From positions 814,069 through 878,068 of the forward strand of contig CAVRET010000002.1 of NCBI GenBank assembly GCA_963720265.1: a DNA stretch of 64,000 bases, given 5' to 3'. Every line of letters starts with the position of its first letter. The first letter of the stretch is position 1. This document shows positions 7,882 to 22,494 of this stretch, piece by piece. The position numbers were made by a program, and so were the translations under genes. The notes beneath the pieces were generated by a model. That model had not been told where the DNA came from. It did no database searches and saw only the letters and a list, made by a program, of their open reading frames with translations. Source of the DNA: an uncultured bacterium (GTDB taxonomy: Bacteria > Patescibacteriota > Saccharimonadia > UBA4664).

Positions 7882-10500
7882 ATGCTCACCTCAGATCGCA
7901 CAATGTCCGTTCTGACCGATGTATTGCCCGCATCGCGGGCAGTCGCGTGCCTCGTACTTATAACGGGCGTCTGCACGGTACTGGCTTTAGGCATTCGACG
8001 CATAATCGACTGGATAGTCCAGCTGCGCACCAAAAGAGCATTCCTCGAGGTGCGTCCCTCTGCCGCAACCGACAAGCTGCCGGTCGCAACCAATCAGCTC
8101 TTTAAGGTCGTGCACGGGGCAAACGCTGCCCGGCCCTGGTACCGCAGACTATTCACAAGAGTAACGGTTTCGCTTGAGATCGTATCATCCAAAACCGAAG
8201 GCATTCGTTTCTACATTGGTGCGCCGGTTAGTCAGATGGACATGATACGGCACCATCTCATTGCCTACGTTCCGGAATCAAGGACCGAACTGGTCCGGGC
8301 GCCGGGGCTTAATCTAAAGGGATCCCACGTCAGGGCGGTTGAATTTCGCCAATCCGGTCATTTCGCTTTGCCGTTAGCCCGTAACGACGCGCTTGACGAT
8401 ACCGACCCGGCCGGCTACCTCACCGGGGCTATGACGGGGCTTGGAGACGGTGAGCTTCTGGCCGTCCAACTCATCGCTTCCCCCGTCAAAAGCAAAGCGG
8501 CGGCGGCCATTGCCAGGCGCCTGCTGAGAAACGAAGACGTAGTCGCTGGTCTCACGTCAGGCAAAGGCGCACCGGTAAGGGGAAGTAGTGCACTGGCCAA
8601 ACTGATCGCATCCATCCTGTCACTGCCTGCGGATATCATCTGGGGCCATACGATGCAAAATACCGGAAGCGAACGGCAGCTGACCGGTCATCTGCTCATG
8701 GCGCAAAACCATTTGAAGCCCGAAAGAACGCTGAGTGCTAAAGAAGAGCAGCTGACAAGGGCCATCCACTACAAGGTGACGCAAAGCGTCTTCAGGACGG
8801 ACCTGCGGGCAATCGCCGTATCTCAAAACCGCGCCGGCACCAGGCGCCGCCTGAACGGGATCAAAGCCGTACTCGCTTCATACGGGGATTCGTCGTACCA
8901 GTCGCTTGCCGCAAGGCCGAAGCTCACGGGATCACTTGGGGGCCGTTACCTCATGTCAAAGGTCACGCGCAGGCTGCCAAGTTTCAGGCCAGGGCGGGCA
9001 AATTTGTTTGCCGCATCAGAACTTGCCGGGCTCTTTCATTTCCCGAATTCTACCTCGGCAAAAACCGAAAACGTTATGAAATCCCTAAGCCGGACCCTGC
9101 CGGCGCCCGTCTCTCTCAAACAGTCTATTCCGAATGCCGGCATCACTGTCGGGCGTAATATCTACCACGGCGCCGAAACTGATATTGTCTTAACCCGCAG
9201 GGATCGCGAACGCCATTGTTACATCATCGGCGGGACCGGAAACGGCAAAACCACGCTGCTTGAGAGTTGCATGATCCAGGATGCAAACCTCGGTAACGGA
9301 TTTGCCTTCATCGACCCGCATGGTGACGCCGCCCAAAACCTGTTGCGCCATATCCCAAGCGCGCGTATTGAGGAGGTAGTTTACCTGAATCCGGACGACT
9401 TAAGTTACCCTATCGGGCTCAACCTCCTCGAGCTGCGTGAAGGTCTGGCGGGGGATGAACTGCTGCGCGAAAAGGATCTTATTACTGAAGCCACCGTCTC
9501 AGTCTTTCGTAAGATCTTCTCAGACCAAGACGAAGGCGGCCACCGGATTGAATACGTGCTTAGGAACACTATCCAGACAGCGCTTACCCAAGACGGCGCC
9601 ACCTTATTCACGGTTTTTGACCTTTTAAACGACCCCGTCTACCGCAAGCGCGTCGTATCAACGCTTGGCGACAAGGACTTAAAGAACTTCTGGCAGCAGG
9701 AGCTGGGCAAGGCCGGCAACTTCCAAAGGGTTAAGATGGCCGCCGGCATCACAGCTAAAATCGGCCGCTTCCTGTTCTCGGCATCAGCCAAACGCATGCT
9801 GGAGCAGCCAAGGTCTACCATTAATTTCGATGACATCATAAATTCCGGAAAAATCTTAATCTGCAACGTTTCAAAAGGATTGCTCGGAGAAGATACGGCC
9901 GAACTATTCGGCATCACGATTCTCGCTAAATTGCAGCTGGCCGCCTTAAGAAGGGCCCGGATGGCGCGCGGCAACCGTCGTCCCTTCTACCTCTATGTCG
10001 ACGAGTTCCAAAACTTCGCCACTACCTCGTTCGTGCAAATGCTCTCAGAAGCAAGAAAGTACGAGGTGCTCATGACGCTCGCCCAGCAGTCCACCGCCCA
10101 GCAACCCGACCAGCGCTTAATCAATGTAGTTCTGGCCAACGTCGGCACGCTCATCGCTTTCCGCACCGCCAGCCCCGCTGACGAACGCCTCCTGCTGCCG
10201 TTCTTTGCGCCCTTTATCGAGTCCGGGGAGATCGGCAACCTGCCGTCGTTTAACTTCTACATGCGCATGACAGGTGTTACTGCCCAGGAGCCCTTCTCCG
10301 GCAAGACGGTCCTGCCGGCAAGCGATGGCAGCGACATTACCGCCGCGGCCATTATCGAATACTCAAGAGCCCACTACGCCAAGAGGTTCGAACCGCCGGC
10401 CGCACCCACGGCAAAAAACGCTGCTACGGCCGCAAATTCGCTGGATAAGAAACCCGGCTTTACCCGGCCAAAATCGCACCTGGAAAGTGGCACCTCATGA
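7882..10500 (+). CDS. membrane-anchored FtsK/TraD/VirD4-like P-loop ATPase (putative conjugative DNA-transfer/coupling protein)
   Basis: N-terminal TM helix, then Walker A (IIGGTGNGKTTLLES) followed by IDPHGD, then Walker B (LYVDEFQNF) and LAQQS. This is the architecture of T4SS coupling or TraG/TraD-like ATPases. Confidence 0.55.
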   Translation: MLTSDRTMSVLTDVLPASRAVACLVLITGVCTVLALGIRRIIDWIVQLRTKRAFLEVRPSAATDKLPVATNQLFKVVHGANAARPWYRRLFTRVTVSLEIVSSKTEGIRFYIGAPVSQMDMIRHHLIAYVPESRTELVRAPGLNLKGSHVRAVEFRQSGHFALPLARNDALDDTDPAGYLTGAMTGLGDGELLAVQLIASPVKSKAAAAIARRLLRNEDVVAGLTSGKGAPVRGSSALAKLIASILSLPADIIWGHTMQNTGSERQLTGHLLMAQNHLKPERTLSAKEEQLTRAIHYKVTQSVFRTDLRAIAVSQNRAGTRRRLNGIKAVLASYGDSSYQSLAARPKLTGSLGGRYLMSKVTRRLPSFRPGRANLFAASELAGLFHFPNSTSAKTENVMKSLSRTLPAPVSLKQSIPNAGITVGRNIYHGAETDIVLTRRDRERHCYIIGGTGNGKTTLLESCMIQDANLGNGFAFIDPHGDAAQNLLRHIPSARIEEVVYLNPDDLSYPIGLNLLELREGLAGDELLREKDLITEATVSVFRKIFSDQDEGGHRIEYVLRNTIQTALTQDGATLFTVFDLLNDPVYRKRVVSTLGDKDLKNFWQQELGKAGNFQRVKMAAGITAKIGRFLFSASAKRMLEQPRSTINFDDIINSGKILICNVSKGLLGEDTAELFGITILAKLQLAALRRARMARGNRRPFYLYVDEFQNFATTSFVQMLSEARKYEVLMTLAQQSTAQQPDQRLINVVLANVGTLIAFRTASPADERLLLPFFAPFIESGEIGNLPSFNFYMRMTGVTAQEPFSGKTVLPASDGSDITAAAIIEYSRAHYAKRFEPPAAPTAKNAATAANSLDKKPGFTRPKSHLESGTS

Positions 10501-10597: not shown

Positions 10598-11389
10598 ATG
10601 ACGAACGCACATCAATCACTAACGAAACAACAAAGCGCAATCCTTACGCTTATAGCAAGATTTAGGTTTATCACAACCAGGCATGTCCAAAAGAAATTGA
10701 AAATCAAATACGTGTCAAACGTTCAGCCGAGACTTAACTGGCTCATAGGACGCGGACTTATCGGTCGTAAGTATGAATCCGAGTTTAAGCTTGCCGGCCG
10801 GCCGGCTGCATATTTCCTCATGCCAAAAGGAATGCGAGCACTCCGTGAGCTTAGGCCCGAAATCGACCGTGCTGCCCTCCACGCCGCCTATAAAGATGTC
10901 GACGCCAGTGACGACTTCATCCGCCGCTGTCTCATGGTAGCGGATACGCACCTGGCACTCTCAACGCGCTTTGGCGGTCAGTTTGAATTTTTTACCAAAA
11001 GTGAATCAAGACCATACGACTACTTCCCGCAGCCCCTTCCGGATGCCTACATCCGCATCCCGGACGAAACAAGATCTGACGACAATCCCGTCCATTTCTT
11101 TCTCGAAGTTTGCCAAACGTCGCGGCCGCCTTTTGCGCTCAGATCACAGCTTAAACGCTATGTCTCGTTTGCCGAAGACGGCCTCTGGCCCGAAACTACC
11201 GGTACGAGGCTGCCGCCGGTCCTCCTGCTTTGTGACACCGATGAACTGGCCAAGAAATTAAAGCGTACGGTCAATGCACTGCTCGAAGACACCTTTGAAG
11301 ACGACCTCGAATTCAAGGTGCTCACCATGTTGGATTTCGCAGCTTGGAACGACAAAATCTTCTTCCCAAAACCAGCCAAAAGTGTCTAA
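10598..11389 (+). CDS. replication-relaxation family protein (plasmid/ICE-associated)
   Basis: N-terminal winged-helix motif LTKQQSAILTLIARFRFITTRHVQKKL matches the replication-relaxation family, and the protein is the expected length. It sits next to the TraD-like ATPase. Confidence 0.65.
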   Translation: MTNAHQSLTKQQSAILTLIARFRFITTRHVQKKLKIKYVSNVQPRLNWLIGRGLIGRKYESEFKLAGRPAAYFLMPKGMRALRELRPEIDRAALHAAYKDVDASDDFIRRCLMVADTHLALSTRFGGQFEFFTKSESRPYDYFPQPLPDAYIRIPDETRSDDNPVHFFLEVCQTSRPPFALRSQLKRYVSFAEDGLWPETTGTRLPPVLLLCDTDELAKKLKRTVNALLEDTFEDDLEFKVLTMLDFAAWNDKIFFPKPAKSV

Positions 11390-12853: not shown

Positions 12854-14030
12854 CAGCTAAGCTGAACCACCCCACACTCCACTCCAGACGATTTGTCCCG
12901 AGGCCTGCTGCAGTTGCTCGTAGGCCTGGCGGAGCCAGGACGTTTGCTTCTTGGGGTTGGCGCTTGTCACGGTTTGTTTAGTGGGCTTCGTTTCCAGATA
13001 AAGTAGTGCAATGCCAAGGCTGACCAGCCACAAGATGAGCTTTAGGTTATGCGGCTTGGTTAACCTGGTGCGTTTGTACTCAAAGATGTGTTTAATGTCC
13101 CGAAAGGTCTCTTCAATCTCGAATCGGTGGTAGTAAATTCGGATAATCTTAGTTCGACTGCTTCTGAAATCGTTAGTGAGTATGTACCAGGACTCTTTGG
13201 CACGCCGGCTTTTGGGCGAGCGGATAACCCGGAGAGTCAGTCCATATATCTGGACCGTGGTATCCCGGTCTACTAAGGAACTAACCTCGGTCACCTCGCC
13301 GTCACATTCAACATATCGCCCTGCCTTGAGGCGGACATAGAAGGTAGCGTTTGCTGCTGCTAGATGCGTCACAATGGACCGGTTGCCAAAACCGCGGTCA
13401 AAGACCAGTCGGGGCCAGAAGCCGAGCCGGTCAGCCATGGCTTGGAGGCTAGTGACGGTATGCTCGGTAAAAGACTGCTGCCGGCGGGCCGCTTGCATGG
13501 CAGCTCTGAGTTTCTTCCAGTGCGGAGCGGCATTCTCGTGGGCAGGAATATGGTGAGCGTAAGTGGTCTCAACCATACAAGGGAGGGATCTGCCCTTCCG
13601 GGTTTGTACGGCACCTACCAAGGCTGTGAGCCCATGCATGTCCGAGTGATCTACATTTACATAGCTGCGTGGTTTGACGAGCGCCAGCTGGTCAAAAACC
13701 TCTCCGAGCTGGTCGGTAAAGGCGGTGTTTTGGAACATGCGCTCTGCCTTACGCAGACCGGTGTGGGGGTTGGCAACCACCATGCGGGCATTGCCGCTGG
13801 CGCTCTGGAAAGCTCTAAGTCCGTATGCCTGCAGGCCAAACGACAGCTGCGTCCGCCAACGGCTCGGCACACTGGGCATTAATTGCTTTTGTATACGAGT
13901 ACGGATACCCCGTACAATATTGGGTGACGACATATTTGTTTTCCTGTTTGTTTTGAAGTGGACAGAAAACAGTGTGTCGTCTTTTTAGTTGCAGCTCAAG
14001 GAAGTGTGGGGTGGTTCAGCCAGCTAAGCT
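12854..14030. mobile_element. IS4-family insertion sequence with terminal inverted repeats and direct-repeat target duplication
   Basis: An 18-bp inverted repeat, GCTGAACCACCCCACACT (12861-12878), and its reverse complement (14003-14020) flank a single transposase gene. The flanking direct repeat is CAGCTAA(GCT): 12854-12863 on the left, 14021-14030 on the right. Confidence 0.8.
12857..13933 (-). CDS. IS4-family DDE transposase
   Basis: 358 aa with VFDRGFGN and a C-terminal YYHRFEIEETFRDIKH, the IS4/IS5-superfamily Y-x2-R-x3-E-x6-K signature. Confidence 0.85.
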   Translation of the reverse strand: MSSPNIVRGIRTRIQKQLMPSVPSRWRTQLSFGLQAYGLRAFQSASGNARMVVANPHTGLRKAERMFQNTAFTDQLGEVFDQLALVKPRSYVNVDHSDMHGLTALVGAVQTRKGRSLPCMVETTYAHHIPAHENAAPHWKKLRAAMQAARRQQSFTEHTVTSLQAMADRLGFWPRLVFDRGFGNRSIVTHLAAANATFYVRLKAGRYVECDGEVTEVSSLVDRDTTVQIYGLTLRVIRSPKSRRAKESWYILTNDFRSSRTKIIRIYYHRFEIEETFRDIKHIFEYKRTRLTKPHNLKLILWLVSLGIALLYLETKPTKQTVTSANPKKQTSWLRQAYEQLQQASGQIVWSGVWGGSA

Positions 14031-14705: not shown

Positions 14706-14791
14706 GACACCGCACTTATTGCAAAATAAATAAATCATGCTCGACCAAAAAACAACCCGGGACTCTACAAAAGAATCCCGGGTTGCCGTTC

Positions 14792-15106
14792 TTAATACTC
14801 GGACGCAAGCATTACCGTAAGTACCCTCCGGCAACGGCGGCTTAACGGATCCTCCCATCCGCGCAGCTGTACGTCGTAATAATCTATCTTCCACAGCACC
14901 GTCTCGTCATGCCAGACAATACTTCCGAAGTCATGCTCACCGTATGGATCGTTATCTGAAGTAAACGCATCAAACGTGCGCACCGCCCGCATCAGCCCCG
15001 CTACATCATCTATCGCTTGCACGCCGGGCGTAATCACAACACCAAACCCTTTGCGCCGAAACTCGTCGTTCAGCGCAGCCACCACTGATGCTTGTTTGGT
15101 CTTCAC
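14792..15106 (-). CDS. DUF3768 family protein
   Basis: DNDPYGEHDFGSIVW...WKIDYYD matches the conserved DUF3768 core found on plasmids and phages. GTG start at 15106 with AAGGAGG at a 5-nt spacing. Confidence 0.55.
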   Translation of the reverse strand: MKTKQASVVAALNDEFRRKGFGVVITPGVQAIDDVAGLMRAVRTFDAFTSDNDPYGEHDFGSIVWHDETVLWKIDYYDVQLRGWEDPLSRRCRRVLTVMLASEY

Positions 15107-15282
15107 TCGTACCTCCTTAACTCTTACGGACGAGCTGTTCTCTCGCCCTGGACATGCGGCAAAGGACAGCCGCGCAAGCGTCAAGGTGGAGCCTGGGGGA
15201 GGTGAGCTGGGACTACCTTGACGCTTGAAACGAGGCTGGCCTTACGATGGAAAGACAAGGGGAGAGCTACCTCTCGTCCCCA

Positions 15283-15874
15283 TGCAAAAGCGACCCCAAT
15301 TAGGGTCGCTTTGCTTACAGATAATAGCAATGGATCAAGCAAGAGAGCGCCGTATATGCGGCGGCCGGGGGGAGTGGAGCGCCGGCGGCTCCATCTCTCC
15401 CCGGCCGGGTGGCCGTTCGCTAGCGCGGCAGGGGCAGCACACGGGCTGCCCCTCCGGTAGTCGAACGACACTGCGGAATTCCCTTCCGCGGGAGGCGTCT
15501 GCCTTACAGGACCCAAGGGTCCTTACGGCAGGCGAAGGCCCCTTGCGGGGCTGTCACGACTCGTATAGAACCAGCCGCATGGACTGCTCCCTTCTTGTTG
15601 ACGTTCCCGCGCGTACCGCCTGCCCCGCGTGGGGCCGGGGGGCGGTAGCCTGGTGCGTGACGCTTTTACCCTGTAGTAGGGCTCAGCGCCGGCCCCTAAG
15701 GGCAACCGTTAACGGCATGACACCTCACAAGGGTCTAGCAGTGCTACCGGGATGAGGCGATGTACCGCGATGATCAGGCGCGGTTCCCGGTTGTAAAGCT
15801 CTAACGAATGAGGGCCTTGCAACCGGAAACCGACTACTCCCTTGCTTGTAAAGGTTTCTGCTAGAAGCAGAATA
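15283..15874 (-). ncRNA. candidate large (~590 nt) GC-rich structured non-coding RNA, or a very long structured leader of the DUF3768 gene
   Basis: Runs between the consensus promoter (15881-15908, minus strand) and hairpin AAAGCGACCC(caatta)GGGTCGCTTT (15287-15312). The interval has only low-complexity R/G/S-rich ORFs. It carries many nested perfect stems, for example GCCCC-ttgc-GGGGC, GGGGCAGC-acacgg-GCTGCCCC, CTGCC-TTAC-AGGACCC-aa-GGGTCCT-TAC-GGCAG and TACCGCC...GGCGGTA enclosing GCCCC-gcgt-GGGGC. Confidence 0.4.
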
Positions 15875-15880
15875 AAGACA

Positions 15881-15908
15881 ATTATACACAAAAAATAACA
15901 TTTGTCAA
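15881..15908 (-). promoter_or_regulatory. perfect consensus sigma70 promoter (TTGACA-N16-TATAAT) on minus strand
   Basis: Minus-strand TTGACA (rc of 15903-15908), a 16-nt spacer, then TATAAT (rc of 15881-15886). No ORF start lies within about 750 nt downstream. Confidence 0.6.
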
Positions 15909-16130
15909 TATTTGATTCGCGGCATCCCGGTGCCTAGAGCAGTGCTTTCTTAGGAGACATCAGTAAATCTTAGGTAACCGCCCGCCCAAAAGTTCACCTG
16001 GGACGGCACGAGGCCTGAGGCTCCACAACTGACAACGCCTCGCGTTGCAAGCTCTGGGGCCTCCTGCCGTACACATGTTTATGCACGGCAGGAATGTTGG
16101 CTGCGGCCCGCAACAACTTACGTGCAGGCC

Positions 16131-17168
16131 TTAGCCGGGGATCGCAGCCCGGTCGGGCTGCAGCTGCATGAGCTGGGCCAGCTGAACTCCCTCCGTGAAA
16201 GTAAATACCGCGCTGTTGAGCAGCCGTTCGTATGCGCCGGGGAAGCGCAGCTGGAGAGTGAGACTGTCCGCCAGATGCGCGGTAGCTAGCTTGATGAGCA
16301 GGTGCCCCGCCTCGATCTCGTTGCCCGCGTTGTCATCCAGGGCCTTGAGTGCAGTCGCAACGAAAACGGCTGCATCTTCCAGGTCCAGTGTTGAAAGCGT
16401 ACCCACGAAGTGCCCGAGCGGCGGGTTAATGAACGCGCGGGCCACGATCTCATTCCAATCGTCCGGATAGCTGAGCTCAGGACAGCTCCACGGACGGCGG
16501 TGACTGACGTGAGTCGCAGTGTACATTCCCACGATTTTCTTGCGGAGCGTCTCGCGCGCTCCGCGATCCAGCGCCGCTGGATATCTCAACTGCTCCACCA
16601 GGCCGTTGAACAGCTTAAGCCAGAGTGCGGCCACCCGTTCTTCTGCCCCGCCGAGATCGTAGTCCGAATCGCCGATGAGCGTCTCTTGCGCCGTTGTGGT
16701 CAGACAAGCCAGCATGTCCGAAAGCTGAGCTTCAGCTTCGATGATGGCTTCGAGATCCGGTGTGTCCGCGGCCATAAGCTGGCGCCGATGCTCGAGCGCC
16801 GCCGCCGCCCTTTCGGTGTACCGCTCGATCTCTTTCTCACTCCTGACCTCAAGCACGATCTGGTCGAAGTCAGCCGTAAGGCCGAGCGCAATAATACGCG
16901 CCACGAGCTCACTGGCCCAAGCTTCCTTCGAGCGGCTATTGCCGGCCTCTTCGGAGGCGGTGTAGATCCGGTCCCGGGCGTCGTCGTCGCCTTGCCCAGC
17001 CCGCGTCACTAGGTCGCACACCGCCCGGTTTGCCTGGACGCGCTCTTTCGCCCTCCTGTCCGCTGCTTGCTGACGTGCTCTTCGTGACCTGCGTACACAC
17101 ATGACATATATGAGTACGATCACGAGGGCCAGACCGCCGAAGAGGGCCAGCCAGTCCCATCCGTTCAT
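16131..17168 (-). CDS. membrane-anchored hypothetical protein
   Basis: N-terminal TM helix (WLALFGGLALVIVLIYVMCV) followed by an R/K-rich stop-transfer sequence and a 300-aa alpha-helical domain. Confidence 0.5.
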   Translation of the reverse strand: MNGWDWLALFGGLALVIVLIYVMCVRRSRRARQQAADRRAKERVQANRAVCDLVTRAGQGDDDARDRIYTASEEAGNSRSKEAWASELVARIIALGLTADFDQIVLEVRSEKEIERYTERAAAALEHRRQLMAADTPDLEAIIEAEAQLSDMLACLTTTAQETLIGDSDYDLGGAEERVAALWLKLFNGLVEQLRYPAALDRGARETLRKKIVGMYTATHVSHRRPWSCPELSYPDDWNEIVARAFINPPLGHFVGTLSTLDLEDAAVFVATALKALDDNAGNEIEAGHLLIKLATAHLADSLTLQLRFPGAYERLLNSAVFTFTEGVQLAQLMQLQPDRAAIPG

Positions 17169-17333
17169 ATGCTTACTCCTAGCCTGTACTCGGGGATGGA
17201 GATCACTACTTTACAATATGTACTGCAAGACGGCAACTGAGACCACGCCTACCCCGCCAAATATAGACAAAGAGTCAAAATAGTATATAGTAATAATACG
17301 TTTTCGCCGGACCCATTGTGAGAGGAGTATCAC

Positions 17334-17831
17334 GTGGATCTCATTGCACGTTCCGACGTAAATGAGCTATCCGCCCTTGTGGTGGATGCACTCGGACCTG
17401 TGTCCGAGGGCATGGCCGCTGTCTGGGCAGGAAACCTCAGGGCTGCCGCCAAGCGTGTCTGCCCGGATCAGCCCATGCCCGGATTCACACACTACACGGC
17501 CTGCGGCGCCCAGTGGTTCGGGTGCAGACTAGACGTCCCCGGAACCTACTGCGGCGATACCGGGGTCGGTTTCAAGAACGGCCACTGCCTGATTCGCGTC
17601 AGCACGGCCTACGCCGGGCCCTCCCGGCAGCGCTGGAACGGGTTCATGGGCCTGCTTAGCGGCAAGATCGGAGCGGGACGGCCCGACTGGTACTTCGGCT
17701 ACGACAAAACCGGCTACCTAGTCATCTCTCAGGGCGGTCATGTTCGTAATAGATATGGGGAAGTCGGCGGCTACCCGGCTATAACAGCCGCCATCGCAGA
17801 CCTGTTCGCAAACACCCTGCCCCACTTCTAA
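17334..17831 (+). CDS. hypothetical protein
   Basis: GTG start with GAGAGGAG at a 6-nt spacing. Cys/Gly/Trp-rich 165-aa product. Confidence 0.45.
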   Translation: MDLIARSDVNELSALVVDALGPVSEGMAAVWAGNLRAAAKRVCPDQPMPGFTHYTACGAQWFGCRLDVPGTYCGDTGVGFKNGHCLIRVSTAYAGPSRQRWNGFMGLLSGKIGAGRPDWYFGYDKTGYLVISQGGHVRNRYGEVGGYPAITAAIADLFANTLPHF

Positions 17832-18144
17832 GAGTCGGTCGACCGCCCCAACTCACTCCATCCATATCCCCAAAACCGTCCACCGTGGGCAGCCAGCTCA
17901 CGGTGGGGCGACCCGAGCGTTCAATACCCATTGAACCTTCAGGTAGCCGCGCATTATCAATTTCGGCCCAGGGTCGACCTCCTGTCCTGGCCTTACGATA
18001 GAAAAGACAACCGCTATGCCCCTGCCGCCGGCCGCGATGCGTCTGTCGCGAGCCTGCTTTGACATCGCCCCGGCGGTCGTATATACCGAGCGTATGCCGT
18101 CGGGCCATATCCCATGGCTCTTGAAAACCGATTCTGGAGGCACC

Positions 18145-19296
18145 GTGACAGATTCATCCGCCGTTTTGCCCGCAACCAACCCCGTCCTCGATCCGCCCGC
18201 CTGGGTTAGGGTCGGGCTTAGTGGCCCTCCGCTGCCCATCGGGGAGAAAGACATCGAGGCTTGGAGCCGTCTCGTCCATGACGGCAATCTGACACTCGAA
18301 GGTGTGGTCTCTCTCGCCATGGGGCGCGTCGCCCCCGGCCGCGGCGGTGCAGAGCCGTTCGCTCCGTCTCCGACGCTCCAGCTCATGGCATTCCTGGCGC
18401 TTCTCGCCTGCGAGACTATCGGCGTAGTACCTGTTCCTATCGGAGAGTTCGCCTGGAAGGACCGTTACCAGGCGCTCGAGGCACCGGGCATGCTCGCAAA
18501 CGTTGGCCCGGAGCTGCGTATCGAGCTCGTCCAGATCCTCACCGCCGCACTCCCAGAGGCCAGGTTGTATATGTCCGTTGGTGATGCGGACATGGACCTC
18601 GAAGTGGGTGCAGCCATCTTCTGCTATCAGCGGCTGCTGGTCAGGCTCTTCCTGACTCTATTGGGCTTCGGTCCGCAGCAGTTCGATCAGGAGAACGAGG
18701 CGTCGCTGACGAGCTTGTTTGGCTGGATGTTCGGCGTCCAGCGCACCTCCGCCTACTGGCTTGGACTCGCTCACGGCTCACTCGCTCAGCAGCTGACAAC
18801 TGCTGCTGGCATGAAGGCCGGTCTCGGCTCAGGCGGCAATTGGTATGCAGCGCAGGTAGCGGCCGCGCTGAACCGTCGCCCCGACGACTACGACCCTGCA
18901 CTGCTGGCAGTTCAGATCCGCTTCCTGCGCGACCATCTCACCGATTTCGGCATTAGGGCGCTTGGCGTAGCTGTCCGCCGCCTGCAGTCGGTTACCACCG
19001 GCCCGAACGAAGCCATCGAGCTGCTTGTCAGGGGTGTAGCAACGGGATCACCGATTACCACTCGCCAGCGTCTGAAAGTTACGTCCCAAGCTGAACTTTC
19101 TGTGCTGCGGCTCGTCCGGGATGTGATTGCAGCCGACGACTCGCCCGGAATGGGCGGAGTGCTCTCAACGCTCGATGACATCATCGAGGAGGGCGTAGAA
19201 TACATCGCGCATGAAGCCGAAGTCGCTGAGGCAGCGGACCAGGCCAGTCGCACCGCCTGGGTCCAGGCGTCCAGCATCGGCAGCAACATCGCTTAG
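18145..19296 (+). CDS. hypothetical protein
   Basis: GTG at 18145 with a GGAGG RBS at a 5-nt spacing. A 383-aa protein-like ORF. The longer 18016 start lacks an RBS. Confidence 0.45.
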   Translation: MTDSSAVLPATNPVLDPPAWVRVGLSGPPLPIGEKDIEAWSRLVHDGNLTLEGVVSLAMGRVAPGRGGAEPFAPSPTLQLMAFLALLACETIGVVPVPIGEFAWKDRYQALEAPGMLANVGPELRIELVQILTAALPEARLYMSVGDADMDLEVGAAIFCYQRLLVRLFLTLLGFGPQQFDQENEASLTSLFGWMFGVQRTSAYWLGLAHGSLAQQLTTAAGMKAGLGSGGNWYAAQVAAALNRRPDDYDPALLAVQIRFLRDHLTDFGIRALGVAVRRLQSVTTGPNEAIELLVRGVATGSPITTRQRLKVTSQAELSVLRLVRDVIAADDSPGMGGVLSTLDDIIEEGVEYIAHEAEVAEAADQASRTAWVQASSIGSNIA

Positions 19297-19504
19297 ACGC
19301 CGCTTGCTGCGGCATCCTATCCGGCTCCCAACAGCCATTCGTATTACCTACCGAAGCTGTTGGGAGCTTCGAAAGAACTTATCAAAAAAGCCAAAGCCAA
19401 GCCCGTAGAAGACGTTAGCGACTCCCAGGCCTCTTAAAAAAATTAACTCAGATTACGAATACCGGCCCGGGCGCATCGCGCACCCGGGCCGGTCATCTCG
19501 CACG

Positions 19505-20215
19505 TCAGTTCGGGGACCACCCAGAGCCGGGACCTCCTTCAGGCTCCTCATAGGTCAGTACCACCAGGCCCTTACTGTGCGCTGCCTCTTGGGCAGTGGG
19601 CGTAAAGACCTCCATCGCCTGGTCGAGCTGGATAGTCACGGATGGCGCCGCCAGATCCACCGCGACGATTCGAAACATGGGGACCAGCTCATTACTCGCA
19701 AGCCCCCGCCTAACGACGATTCCATCAGCCTTGTCGATTTCGCGGGCAACTTGGGCCAGGGTCTTTTGGCGCATCCAGTTCATCGGAATGATGAGTGACT
19801 CGACCAGCGGGTCAATCACCTCCACCAGGGAGTCTTGAAGACCAGGAATGCCGCTCAAAACATGGACCCGTTCGAGCGCGGTCATGTTTTGGCTGCCGCG
19901 AGTCTTGAGATGAACCGGCGCGCCGGCGTAAACCGTAACAAACGGCTCGCCCGACGCCATGAATGGCTGACGTATCCCGGACGGCTCGATAAACACTGCC
20001 GAGTTGTCCTCTCGCGCGGTTATACCGCGCTCCAGGATGTACCGCCACAGTCGTTCATCGTCGCCACGCTCATCCGGTAGCCGCACCCATACCCGGTGTT
20101 GGAGCTTCGCACGTTTGCGAATTATGACCAGGCAGGCCTCGAGGTACCGGGGATCCGCCGGATCAGTCCTAGGATCCATGACCAACCTCAAAGCTTCCAT
20201 CAGTGACAGCGCCAC
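19505..20215 (-). CDS. hypothetical protein
   Basis: Protein-like 237-aa ORF. Start assigned to the GTG at 20215 preceded by AAGGGGG. Upstream ATGs lack an RBS, so the start is uncertain. Confidence 0.4.
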   Translation of the reverse strand: MALSLMEALRLVMDPRTDPADPRYLEACLVIIRKRAKLQHRVWVRLPDERGDDERLWRYILERGITAREDNSAVFIEPSGIRQPFMASGEPFVTVYAGAPVHLKTRGSQNMTALERVHVLSGIPGLQDSLVEVIDPLVESLIIPMNWMRQKTLAQVAREIDKADGIVVRRGLASNELVPMFRIVAVDLAAPSVTIQLDQAMEVFTPTAQEAAHSKGLVVLTYEEPEGGPGSGWSPN

Positions 20216-20471
20216 AGCGCCCCCTTGTTGTGTTGTGAAGGCACAGATGCCAGAAACGGTGTCCCATATCATACACTGTTTTATGATCACGCCAGTAAGT
20301 AATCGTAATACCCAGATACGTTTTCTATACTAATCATGGTATTATTTTGACCTCGACGTTATCGAGGTCGCTCCTGAACAAGGTGCTAAGAGTTTACGTT
20401 GTGTTTTGGCTACCGTGATTTACCCAAATCTGCAAAAGCTCCAATCCGAAACAACCACGTAGGAGGTCGCA

Positions 20472-20867
20472 GTGGCGTCCCCAAACGATTCGAAACCCGA
20501 CCCCAGGCTGGTCCGAAGCATGGAGACATGGCCCAGAAAAATCAGGCGAAAAGTGGCGATGATCGTGCTCGGACGTCGTTTTCGCGCCCAGCAAAGGGCT
20601 AGCGCGTCACCACTACTGCTGCCGCACTTCTGGTGGGTACGAATATTCCTGCCGGTTGCGTATCTAGTGATCCCGGCCGCCATCGGCGGAGTCATTGGGG
20701 CGATCCACCTCGGTATCCCTATAAGGGAGCTATTCTCGTTCAACTCGAAAGCCAACAATGCCCTAGCCCCATGGACAATCGGGTCCGGCCTGATCGGCCT
20801 AACGTGCTGCATGATGGTGGAAGGTTTCGTCTTCCGGCGCCGGAGGCACAGCGACACCCCTGAGTGA
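20472..20867 (+). CDS. small membrane protein, hypothetical
   Basis: GTG start with AGGAGG at a 5-nt spacing. Two predicted TM helices. Confidence 0.45.
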   Translation: MASPNDSKPDPRLVRSMETWPRKIRRKVAMIVLGRRFRAQQRASASPLLLPHFWWVRIFLPVAYLVIPAAIGGVIGAIHLGIPIRELFSFNSKANNALAPWTIGSGLIGLTCCMMVEGFVFRRRRHSDTPE

Positions 20868-21249
20868 GTGCCGGATGCCACAACACCCGATGAACGAGAT
20901 TCGGCCCAGGTCCGAGTCATGCTCGCAGCCGCTGACCCCAAGGACGACAGACGCCGCCGCCTCAGGGTCGGCGGCGTCTGTCGTTTAGCCGCACCATAAG
21001 TGTCCAAATAAACGGCAATGCATCGGGCAAATCAGTTGGAGCCACTCCGCCACAAGTGGCTGGAGCCACCTTGACGGTACAAGCATGAATGGTGTCTCTA
21101 CCTAAGCCAGCAACGAATCGAATCAGTTATTATTGATGATAACAGCATTTATGTAATAATAATCGCGTCTCACTCCAGCCCTTAGCGTGGCCCTACCCAC
21201 GCTTGTGAGATAACGAGGCATGGCACTTCGACTAGGAAAGGTGGAATGC

Positions 21250-21993: not shown

Positions 21994-22062
21994 TTACATA
22001 ACAAAGACGGGCCAGAATACATGATCTCGCTACTATGAGAAAATCGGCTCCCAGGCGCCGGC

Positions 22063-22494
22063 ATGGAGTATTATCAGATCATGAAAGTATTATTTATCGC
22101 CGGCTTTGGACCAATCATCACTGACATAGACAAAAGCCGGGACCTATACGTTAAGACACTCGAGCTACCGCTCAAGGAAGAAGACAACCACTACTTCCAC
22201 ACGGGAGAGTTAGGTGGTGCGAAACACTTTGCATTGTGGCCTCTCTCACAAGCAGCCGAATCATGTTTTGGGACGGATAAATGGCCTGAAGATATCCCGG
22301 CCCCGACATCATGGGTAGAGTTTGATGTTGCAGATATTGACGCTGCAACAAAGGAGCTGGAAGCCGCAGGTTACAAACTCCTCGTTGCTTCGCGTAAAGA
22401 ACCTTGGGAGCAGATTGTCACACGGTTTTTAAGTCCGGAAGGTATATTGACCGGCTTAACCTACACGCCGTGGATGAGGGAGGAAAAGAAATGA
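22063..22494 (+). CDS. VOC (glyoxalase/bleomycin-resistance) family protein
   Basis: About 140 aa with a paired beta-alpha-beta-beta-beta VOC-fold pattern (KVLFIAGFGPIITDIDKSRDLYVKTLEL...). An alternative start lies at 22081. Confidence 0.6.
   Translation: MEYYQIMKVLFIAGFGPIITDIDKSRDLYVKTLELPLKEEDNHYFHTGELGGAKHFALWPLSQAAESCFGTDKWPEDIPAPTSWVEFDVADIDAATKELEAAGYKLLVASRKEPWEQIVTRFLSPEGILTGLTYTPWMREEKK

Follow-up and report, generated by a model that had tools for sequence, protein, structure and literature searches.

The DNA analysed here, referred to as the window, is a stretch of 64 kb (64,000 nt) of contig CAVRET010000002.1 from an uncultured member of the Saccharimonadia, and its left third, up to about 22 kb, is an integrated mobile element (G+C content 58-62%, compared to about 50% beyond it). 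Inside this element, a non-coding stretch of about 590 nt (15283-15908), over which the source assembly has no gene call, is bracketed by a sigma-70 promoter and an intrinsic terminator located on the same (minus) strand. This promoter-to-terminator unit, here termed the cassette, is co-oriented with a gene encoding a protein of the DUF3768 family, which lies downstream of both the cassette and a separate, conserved hairpin of 143 nt. An earlier reading made from the letters of the DNA (the sequence-only reading) had proposed that the stretch is a large, ornate, G+C-rich non-coding RNA. The features of the cassette and of its immediate downstream neighbourhood are as follows, in the direction of the putative transcript:

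15881-15935, minus strand: sigma-70 promoter (TTGACA 15908-15903, 16-nt spacer, TATAAT 15886-15881)
15856-15872, minus strand: hairpin of 7 bp (UUCUGCU-UCU-AGCAGAA; pair probability 0.93) forming the predicted 5' terminus of the transcript
15336-15848, minus strand: candidate RNA body (helix probabilities mostly >0.9)
15647-15614: stem UACCGCC/GGCGGUA enclosing CCCCG/CGGGG, in the minimum free energy (MFE) fold
15551-15538: stem GCCCC-GCAA-GGGGC, in the MFE fold
15531-15499: stem CUGCC..AGGACC/GGUCCU..GGCAG, in the MFE fold
15453-15430: stem AGGGGCAGC/GCUGCCCCU, in the MFE fold
15406-15363: stem GGCCGGGG/CCCCGGCC enclosing UGGAGC/GCUCCA, in the MFE fold
15284-15314, minus strand: intrinsic terminator, GCAAA + GCGACCCU-AAUU-GGGGUCGC + UUUUGC
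15125-15267, minus strand: conserved hairpin directly upstream of DUF3768, separate from the cassette and outside 15283-15908
14792-15106, minus strand: DUF3768 gene (PF12599, E 8.7e-26), with a GTG start codon and an AAGGAGG ribosome-binding site

The promoter, which the sequence-only reading had put forward as a perfect consensus, was borne out: all 12 of the 12 hexamer positions agree with the consensus, and the perfect TTGACA-16-TATAAT occurs a single time in the window, against 0.01 occurrences expected from dinucleotide shuffles. The sequence AATCAAATAT lies directly upstream of the -35 box and the promoter block (15876-15935) is locally A/T-rich (63% A+T); the local G+C content is 62%, not the about 65% that had been given. 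Transcription is predicted to start at about 15873 and to proceed for about 588 nt on the minus strand to about 15285. At that end a terminator is indeed found: an 8-bp stem (15309-15302/15297-15290) carries a 5-bp extension (GCAAA/UUUGC) and is followed by UUUU (15289-15286). To judge from the symmetry of A-tract, hairpin and U-tract, this terminator could stop transcription arriving from either side. Between the terminator and the DUF3768 hairpin, no -35/-10-like pair was seen on reading the sequence.

Upstream of the consensus promoter, two hairpins that separate it from the stop codon of a gene for a 345-aa protein gave a sub-threshold match to the Rfam gyrA RNA motif (16045-16123, minus strand; 29.3 bits compared to a gathering threshold of 45, E 5.9e-5), which is probably due to chance or to a terminator-like structure.

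The minus strand of the stretch (593 nt) folds with a predicted MFE of -306 kcal/mol (z = -9.7), a value that none of 100 shuffles equalled. In a sliding scan of both strands between 5 and 25 kb (264 segments of 300 nt; background mean -1.2, standard deviation 1.8), the two most extreme segments (z -10.2 and -9.1) were both located inside the stretch and on the minus strand, the individual scores being rough since only 15 shuffles were made per segment. A long-range helix of 13 bp (15848-15836 with 15348-15336; probability 0.99) closes the whole body and encloses about 11 G+C-rich hairpin domains; it contains two G-U pairs, which can form on the minus strand only. The stems singled out by the sequence-only reading are all present in the MFE fold, with pair probabilities of about 0.85-1.0. 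The predicted fold as a whole resembles a wheel, made of simple hairpins with mostly perfect Watson-Crick pairing, and is mirrored on the other strand. The 5'-terminal hairpin, at the very start of the predicted transcript, may have a role in transcript stability.

The earlier statement that the stretch holds no credible open reading frame (ORF) was confirmed. Apart from the missing gene call, the G+C content is flat over the three codon positions (0.59/0.62/0.645, with second-position values of 0.40-0.52 in the neighbouring genes), and the ORFs that overlap the stretch (176 aa on the plus strand, 111 aa on the minus strand) have an R/G/S/P-rich composition. Pfam searches with the overlapping ORFs gave nothing near significance (the sole listing was at chance level, E 0.014 and 16.5 bits compared to a cutoff of 27), and the 176-aa ORF had no relative among 1.84 billion representative proteins. 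ORFs preceded by Shine-Dalgarno-like motifs comprise only 8, 11 and 35 codons and none is hydrophobic, i.e., no toxin ORF was found in the cassette.

The eight-codon mini-ORF (MRLVLYES; 15580-15554, minus strand, RNA positions 296-322) begins 6 nt past a Shine-Dalgarno-like AAGGGAG and falls in a purine-rich linker, the longest unpaired one of the predicted fold; the motifs of the 11-codon and 35-codon ORFs are weak.

As to known RNA families, which the sequence-only reading had not recognized and for which it had suggested a scan of both strands with covariance models, Rfam 15 gave no match in the whole window at gathering thresholds. When the limit was relaxed to E <=10 (both strands, 15000-16200), there were within 15283-15908 just chance-level matches to miRNA, snoRNA and lncRNA families (E 1-8), and none to families such as GOLLD, ROOL, HEARO, OLE, RNase P, tmRNA, SRP and group I/II introns. 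ARAGORN detected neither a tRNA nor a tmRNA.

The hairpin between the cassette and DUF3768 is the more solid and better-supported result of this analysis. The interval of about 160 nt that separates the terminator from the start codon of DUF3768 was found by nhmmer to be conserved in about 20 loci, and a covariance model built from 19 sequences recovered plus-strand copies with more than 60 bits in 65 of 82 related DUF3768 loci (80 from genomes and 2 from metagenomes, mostly of the candidate phyla radiation, CPR), nearly all of them directly upstream of DUF3768. The copy in the window (15125-15267) scores 97 bits, its fold as DNA has a z of -5.3, and it has no match in Rfam. With the hand-drawn structure of 35 pairs that underlies the pairing statistics, 17 of the 35 pairs show compensatory changes (none of 500 shuffles reached the observed score) and 81% of the cells are paired, compared to at most 45% when the partner is slid.

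The antisense arm of the hairpin carries the pattern TTGAnn-N15/16-TAnnnT. In the 59 distinct copies compared, TTG of the -35 box is invariant, and A occupies position 4 in 54 of them; in the -10 box, T1 is found in 58, A2 in 58 and T6 in 54. These counts are somewhat flattered, since the -10 box was taken wherever it matched best at a spacing between 14 and 20 nt. A spacer of 15 or 16 nt is present in 52 of the 59. In the window, the hexamers are located in the 3' arm of the plus strand (TTGACG 15218-15223, 19 nt, TACGAT 15243-15248). The duplex spans the region from -35 to about -12, the -10 hexamer is located at an internal loop, and an outer helix (CCUCCC/GGGAGG and CUGUC/GACAG) restores the duplex further downstream. 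As double-stranded DNA, the promoter of the hairpin would point away from DUF3768; where copies occur in tandem, it would be directed into the co-oriented gene that precedes it. If instead the antisense strand folds on itself, the promoter arm becomes the non-template strand, and RNA polymerase would leave the base of the hairpin into DUF3768 and produce sense mRNA. A conserved hairpin with -35 and -10 elements on the 3' arm of the antisense strand that point towards the gene is the sequence pattern of Frpo- and sso-type promoters, and the same architecture is known from the Frpo single-strand promoters of plasmid leading regions (PMC11541004); the likeness is one of architecture. We propose that 15125-15267 is a Frpo-like single-strand DNA promoter for DUF3768. 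In that case, DUF3768 would be an early gene of the leading region, the transferred strand would be the plus strand of the window, and oriT would be expected between 11389 and 14792. Leading-region genes are reported to be templated by the transferred strand (PMC11541004), and the cassette, having the same orientation as DUF3768, would be templated by the proposed transferred strand as well and would follow just behind the early promoter. In sister loci, the hairpin stands directly behind unrelated sequence, and DUF3768 therefore does not depend on the cassette.

Weaker extra copies of the hairpin were seen in L036 (3308-3447), L029 (3305-3450), L042 (757-902), L056 (2265-2367 and 5812-5962), L066 (3534-3656) and L074 (2867-3000). 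They precede genes for proteins of about 95 aa; two representatives, one from L036 and one from L056, gave a match to DUF7249 in Pfam, and the motif NGWSNRETW is common to the rest. Several putative single-strand promoters per element recall the leading region of the F plasmid. Among eight sister-locus regions located upstream of the hairpin, that of L053 (3400-3786) is the only strongly structured one (z -6.4 on the plus strand, -5.9 on the minus strand).

The location of the cassette in a mobile element, already suspected from the neighbouring genes, is supported by the presence of a type IV coupling protein (T4CP), a Replic_Relax gene and DUF3768. The remaining features of the element are:

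Element part of the window: LuxR-type regulator
7882-10500: T4CP
10598-11389: Replic_Relax gene
12857-13933, minus strand: IS4-family DDE transposase
14751-14787, minus strand: strong terminator 3' of DUF3768 (16-bp stem, then TTTTT)
15266-20319: variable cargo block of about 5 kb with the RNA cassette and four ORFan genes, delimited by synteny breakpoints relative to the sister element L081
16131-17168, minus strand: ORFan, 345 aa (protein P0123)
17334-17831, plus strand: ORFan, 165 aa
18016-19296, plus strand: ORFan, 426 aa
19505-20290, minus strand: ORFan, 261 aa

The closest relatives of the DUF3768 protein (identity at most 67% in genome loci and at most 78% among metagenome proteins) are found in genome bins of Saccharibacteria and other CPR/Patescibacteria; the family is not mentioned in the literature searched, nor in the supplements of the leading-region paper PMC11541004. 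The sister element L081 is syntenic and aligns to 14749-15265 (DUF3768 and its upstream hairpin) and to 20320-21015 of the window. Because L081 has only 0.7 kb of DNA with an unrelated gene between the two aligned blocks, 15266-20319 is variable cargo, and the block has the appearance of a hot spot for cargo located behind the early promoter. No homologues were found for the cargo ORFs (searched as the 345-aa protein, as a concatenate of the 165-, 426-, 261- and 203-aa ORFs, and by tblastn against plasmids). This search route is imperfect for the 345-aa protein: the 90%-identity cluster to which P0123 was assigned has a 44-aa peptide without relation to it as its representative (P0124, from the marine contig L083), and searches of cluster representatives for that reason cannot return P0123. 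Defence-system models had no match among the neighbours of the cassette, and no Pfam match to a reverse transcriptase, IscB/TnpB or Cas protein was found among the scanned ORFs of the island. A 33-nt match of 94% identity between 22055-22087 of the window and 3395-3363 of L081 coincides with the drop in G+C content from about 60% to about 50%, and these two signs together probably mark the right end or attachment site of the element near 22.06 kb.

The IS4-family transposase gene (12857-13933) sits between the relaxase gene and DUF3768, in the stretch predicted to hold oriT. Several of the sister elements abut tRNA genes.

Our preferred reading, which we hold tentatively and rate a little short of an even chance, is that the cassette is an orphan, independently transcribed gene for a non-coding RNA of about 588 nt (15873 to about 15285, minus strand), a lineage-specific piece of leading-region cargo in an integrated conjugative or mobilizable element. 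It is built on the transcription signals, the predicted fold, the absence of coding potential and the cargo status of the cassette as observed above. Transcription itself would be expected while the element is double-stranded, when the consensus promoter with its A/T-rich upstream block may fire constitutively. The transcript would begin with the protective 5' hairpin, close by means of the 13-bp helix between its 5' and 3' parts, and fold to a compact wheel of about 11 G+C-rich hairpins. A discrete 3' end would result from release at the terminator with its A-tract, hairpin and U-tract, which may at the same time insulate DUF3768 from the strong promoter of the cassette and stop transcription in the opposite direction that leaves the double-stranded form of the hairpin promoter; DUF3768, with a Frpo-like hairpin of its own, can probably do without a double-strand promoter. 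What the cassette produces would be a stable, trans-acting RNA. As to its function, the position of the cassette among ORFan cargo right behind the early promoter leads us to guess at a role in establishment or anti-defence (e.g., as a decoy or scaffold).

A number of results weigh against the preferred reading. The homologous loci that the sequence-only reading had wanted searched yielded no relative: by nhmmer and blastn, the sequence of about 590 nt is present beside DUF3768 in 0 of the 82 loci, and blastn against 72,556 plasmids and 50,697 phages gave no homologue of the cassette. Exact-word scans of 241 million metagenome records found 0 matches for a 22-mer and 18 matches for an 18-mer (none extending past the word), six word scans of IMG/VR found no match, and the route through spurious ORFs found no ORF over the stretch in a collection of 15 billion proteins; as the large collections were searched by exact words only, diverged relatives could have been missed. 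Because no homologue was recovered, covariation in the cassette is not assessable. The plus strand folds nearly as well as the minus strand (-300 kcal/mol, z -7.0), so that structure alone does not identify the strand, nor whether it acts as RNA or as DNA; the near symmetry extends to 110 mirrored pairs and to the numbers of G-U pairs (18 on the minus strand, 17 on the plus strand). The stems in the 3' half are nearly all perfect Watson-Crick helices and thus bear no mark of selection acting on the RNA. Few tertiary motifs are present (one GNRA loop, GCAA, and one CUUG loop), and no loop-loop complementarity of at least 5 nt that might indicate pseudoknots or kissing loops was found in the predicted fold. 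The internal signs of an ornate RNA, as far as the predicted fold reveals them, are weak. The cassette itself is a real and statistically remarkable feature, but a singleton, and the analysis lends no support to the claim of a large ornate RNA, nor does it exclude it.

A word of 20-21 nt (AACGTCAACAAGAAGGGAGC) in the metagenome contigs L085, L090, L094, L095, L096 and L097 matches RNA positions 303-323 exactly, with nothing matching beyond it; the probable explanation is a conserved coding word that has nothing to do with the RNA. In the sister elements, conserved gaps of about 840 nt that lack long ORFs and lie 1-2 kb downstream of DUF3768 (L035 5794-6599, L036 5455-6296, L039, L041, L042, L066, L075 and others) were considered as candidate RNAs and rejected, since small genes with ribosome-binding sites were found in them, including an RHH/CopG-like one.

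The lack of homologues, the mostly perfect, strand-symmetric stems and the missing hints of tertiary motifs would also be expected if the stretch were non-functional filler, i.e., a G+C-rich and palindrome-rich remnant from the ORFan cargo (in which it is embedded and which is absent from L081) whose real promoter and terminator yield a transcript without specific function; the cassette might even merely terminate antisense transcription from the hairpin promoter. A promoter with 12 of 12 consensus positions and an A/T-rich upstream block is, however, very unlikely to arise by chance, the z-score of the structure is the most extreme in 20 kb, and a 13-bp helix that closes a whole body of 500 nt looks designed rather than accidental; we consider filler unlikely, though it deserves to be kept in mind. 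That the stretch hides a missed protein-coding gene or a pseudogene, as the two overlapping ORFs of 176 aa (plus strand) and 111 aa (minus strand) could suggest, is scarcely credible: their R/G/S/P-rich composition, the missing gene call and the lack of a Pfam match all argue against it, and the absence of codon-position bias and of homologues (none among the 1.84 billion representatives) effectively refutes it.

The sequence-only reading had offered as its own alternative a very long leader or attenuator of DUF3768, in which the consensus promoter would serve DUF3768 at the double-strand stage and the structured region with its terminator would set the level of read-through. Strand and direction are shared with DUF3768, no other promoter-like site was seen between the terminator and this gene, and with a U-tract of only four U some read-through is plausible. 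This alternative is nevertheless largely refuted and, in our estimate, decidedly unlikely, because a leader should accompany its gene, whereas the sequence is found in none of the 82 related DUF3768 loci, L081 has an unrelated gene in that place, the upstream regions tested are not unusually structured (except that of L053, z -6.4), no anti-terminator alternative that disrupts the core terminator stem was found on reading the predicted folds, and DUF3768 has its own conserved promoter hairpin of 143 nt. The hairpins of the stretch might also act at the DNA level, on the transferred single strand (plus strand of the window), as a single-strand origin or priming site of the sso/ssi type, or as a protein-loading site. 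The position in the leading region beside a single-strand promoter hairpin, the nearly equal folding of the plus strand and the plain palindromic nature of most pairs would suit such an element, and F-like plasmids are known to have several structured single-stranded DNA elements per leading region (PMC11541004). The plus strand of 15283-15908, however, lacks the -35/-10-like pair that an RNA-polymerase-dependent sso or Frpo needs (TTG[AG]nn-N15-18-TAnnnT does not occur on the plus strand of 15100-16140, and a separate promoter search gave no plus-strand site in the stretch either), sister elements have the transfer genes in common with this element but not the stretch, and the perfect double-strand promoter and the terminator would be left without explanation. 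Moreover, sso/ssi elements are typically 150-330 nt long, and the stretch, at about 500 nt, is far above this size. We regard action at the DNA level as very unlikely.

A bolder form of the preferred reading would make the cassette the first example seen of a hitherto unrecognized class of large structured RNAs that T4CP/Replic_Relax/DUF3768 elements, found mostly in CPR bacteria, carry as leading-region cargo. Such an RNA would be made abundantly from a consensus promoter and be active in establishment or anti-defence (e.g., as an RNA decoy or scaffold), with relatives that exact-word searching missed; this we hold to be distinctly improbable. Should the cassette indeed yield a functional transcript, the cargo of conjugative leading regions, which is mostly protein-based, would gain an RNA, a large structured one without known relatives, in elements whose nearest kin are in CPR genomes. 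The hairpin is strongly conserved, covaries and bears promoter hexamers, and it precedes DUF3768 and DUF7249 genes in dozens of related elements, for the most part in Saccharibacteria and other Patescibacteria. According to a recent survey, relaxases are rare in Patescibacteria, and conjugation by their type IV secretion systems was questioned (PMC12102498). If the hairpin works like Frpo, it argues for single-stranded DNA transfer with early expression in these elements, and it bears on whether Patescibacteria exchange DNA by conjugation, a question that the survey left open.

Compared with known systems, the cassette resembles GOLLD, ROOL, HEARO/omega RNA, OLE and raiA in its size of about 0.6 kb, its non-coding nature, its many hairpins and its carriage by a mobile element. 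The analogy with GOLLD, ROOL, HEARO and OLE drawn by the sequence-only reading does not extend beyond size and location: in contrast to these RNAs and to raiA, the cassette has no covariance-model match (E <=10), no family of homologues, no covariation and few tertiary motifs, and no conserved internal loops or features of the tetraloop-receptor type were seen in it. No partner protein of the IscB/TnpB type or of another kind was found beside the cassette, its neighbours being ORFans. RNA II of ColE1-type plasmids, the replication primer, is an untranslated, highly folded RNA of about 550 nt transcribed from a strong sigma-70 promoter. The RNA predicted for the cassette would likewise be strongly promoted, folded, untranslated and encoded on a mobile replicon, but the cassette ends at an intrinsic terminator and not at an origin, has no promoter for an antisense RNA I-like transcript near its 5' end, and belongs to an element that uses a relaxase/T4CP module. 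Frpo/ssi single-strand promoters and sso origins are known from conjugative and rolling-circle elements (Masai & Arai 1997, as cited in PMC11541004). With these the cassette shares its place in the leading region and the extensive intrastrand pairing on the proposed transferred strand, but it differs in that it has no promoter hexamers on that strand and is not conserved. In the hok/sok-type mRNAs of plasmid leading regions, long-range pairing between the 5' and 3' ends closes a compact, stable transcript; although the cassette has neither a toxin ORF nor an antisense promoter, it shares with these mRNAs both the pairing of its 5' and 3' ends, as predicted, and the location in a leading region.

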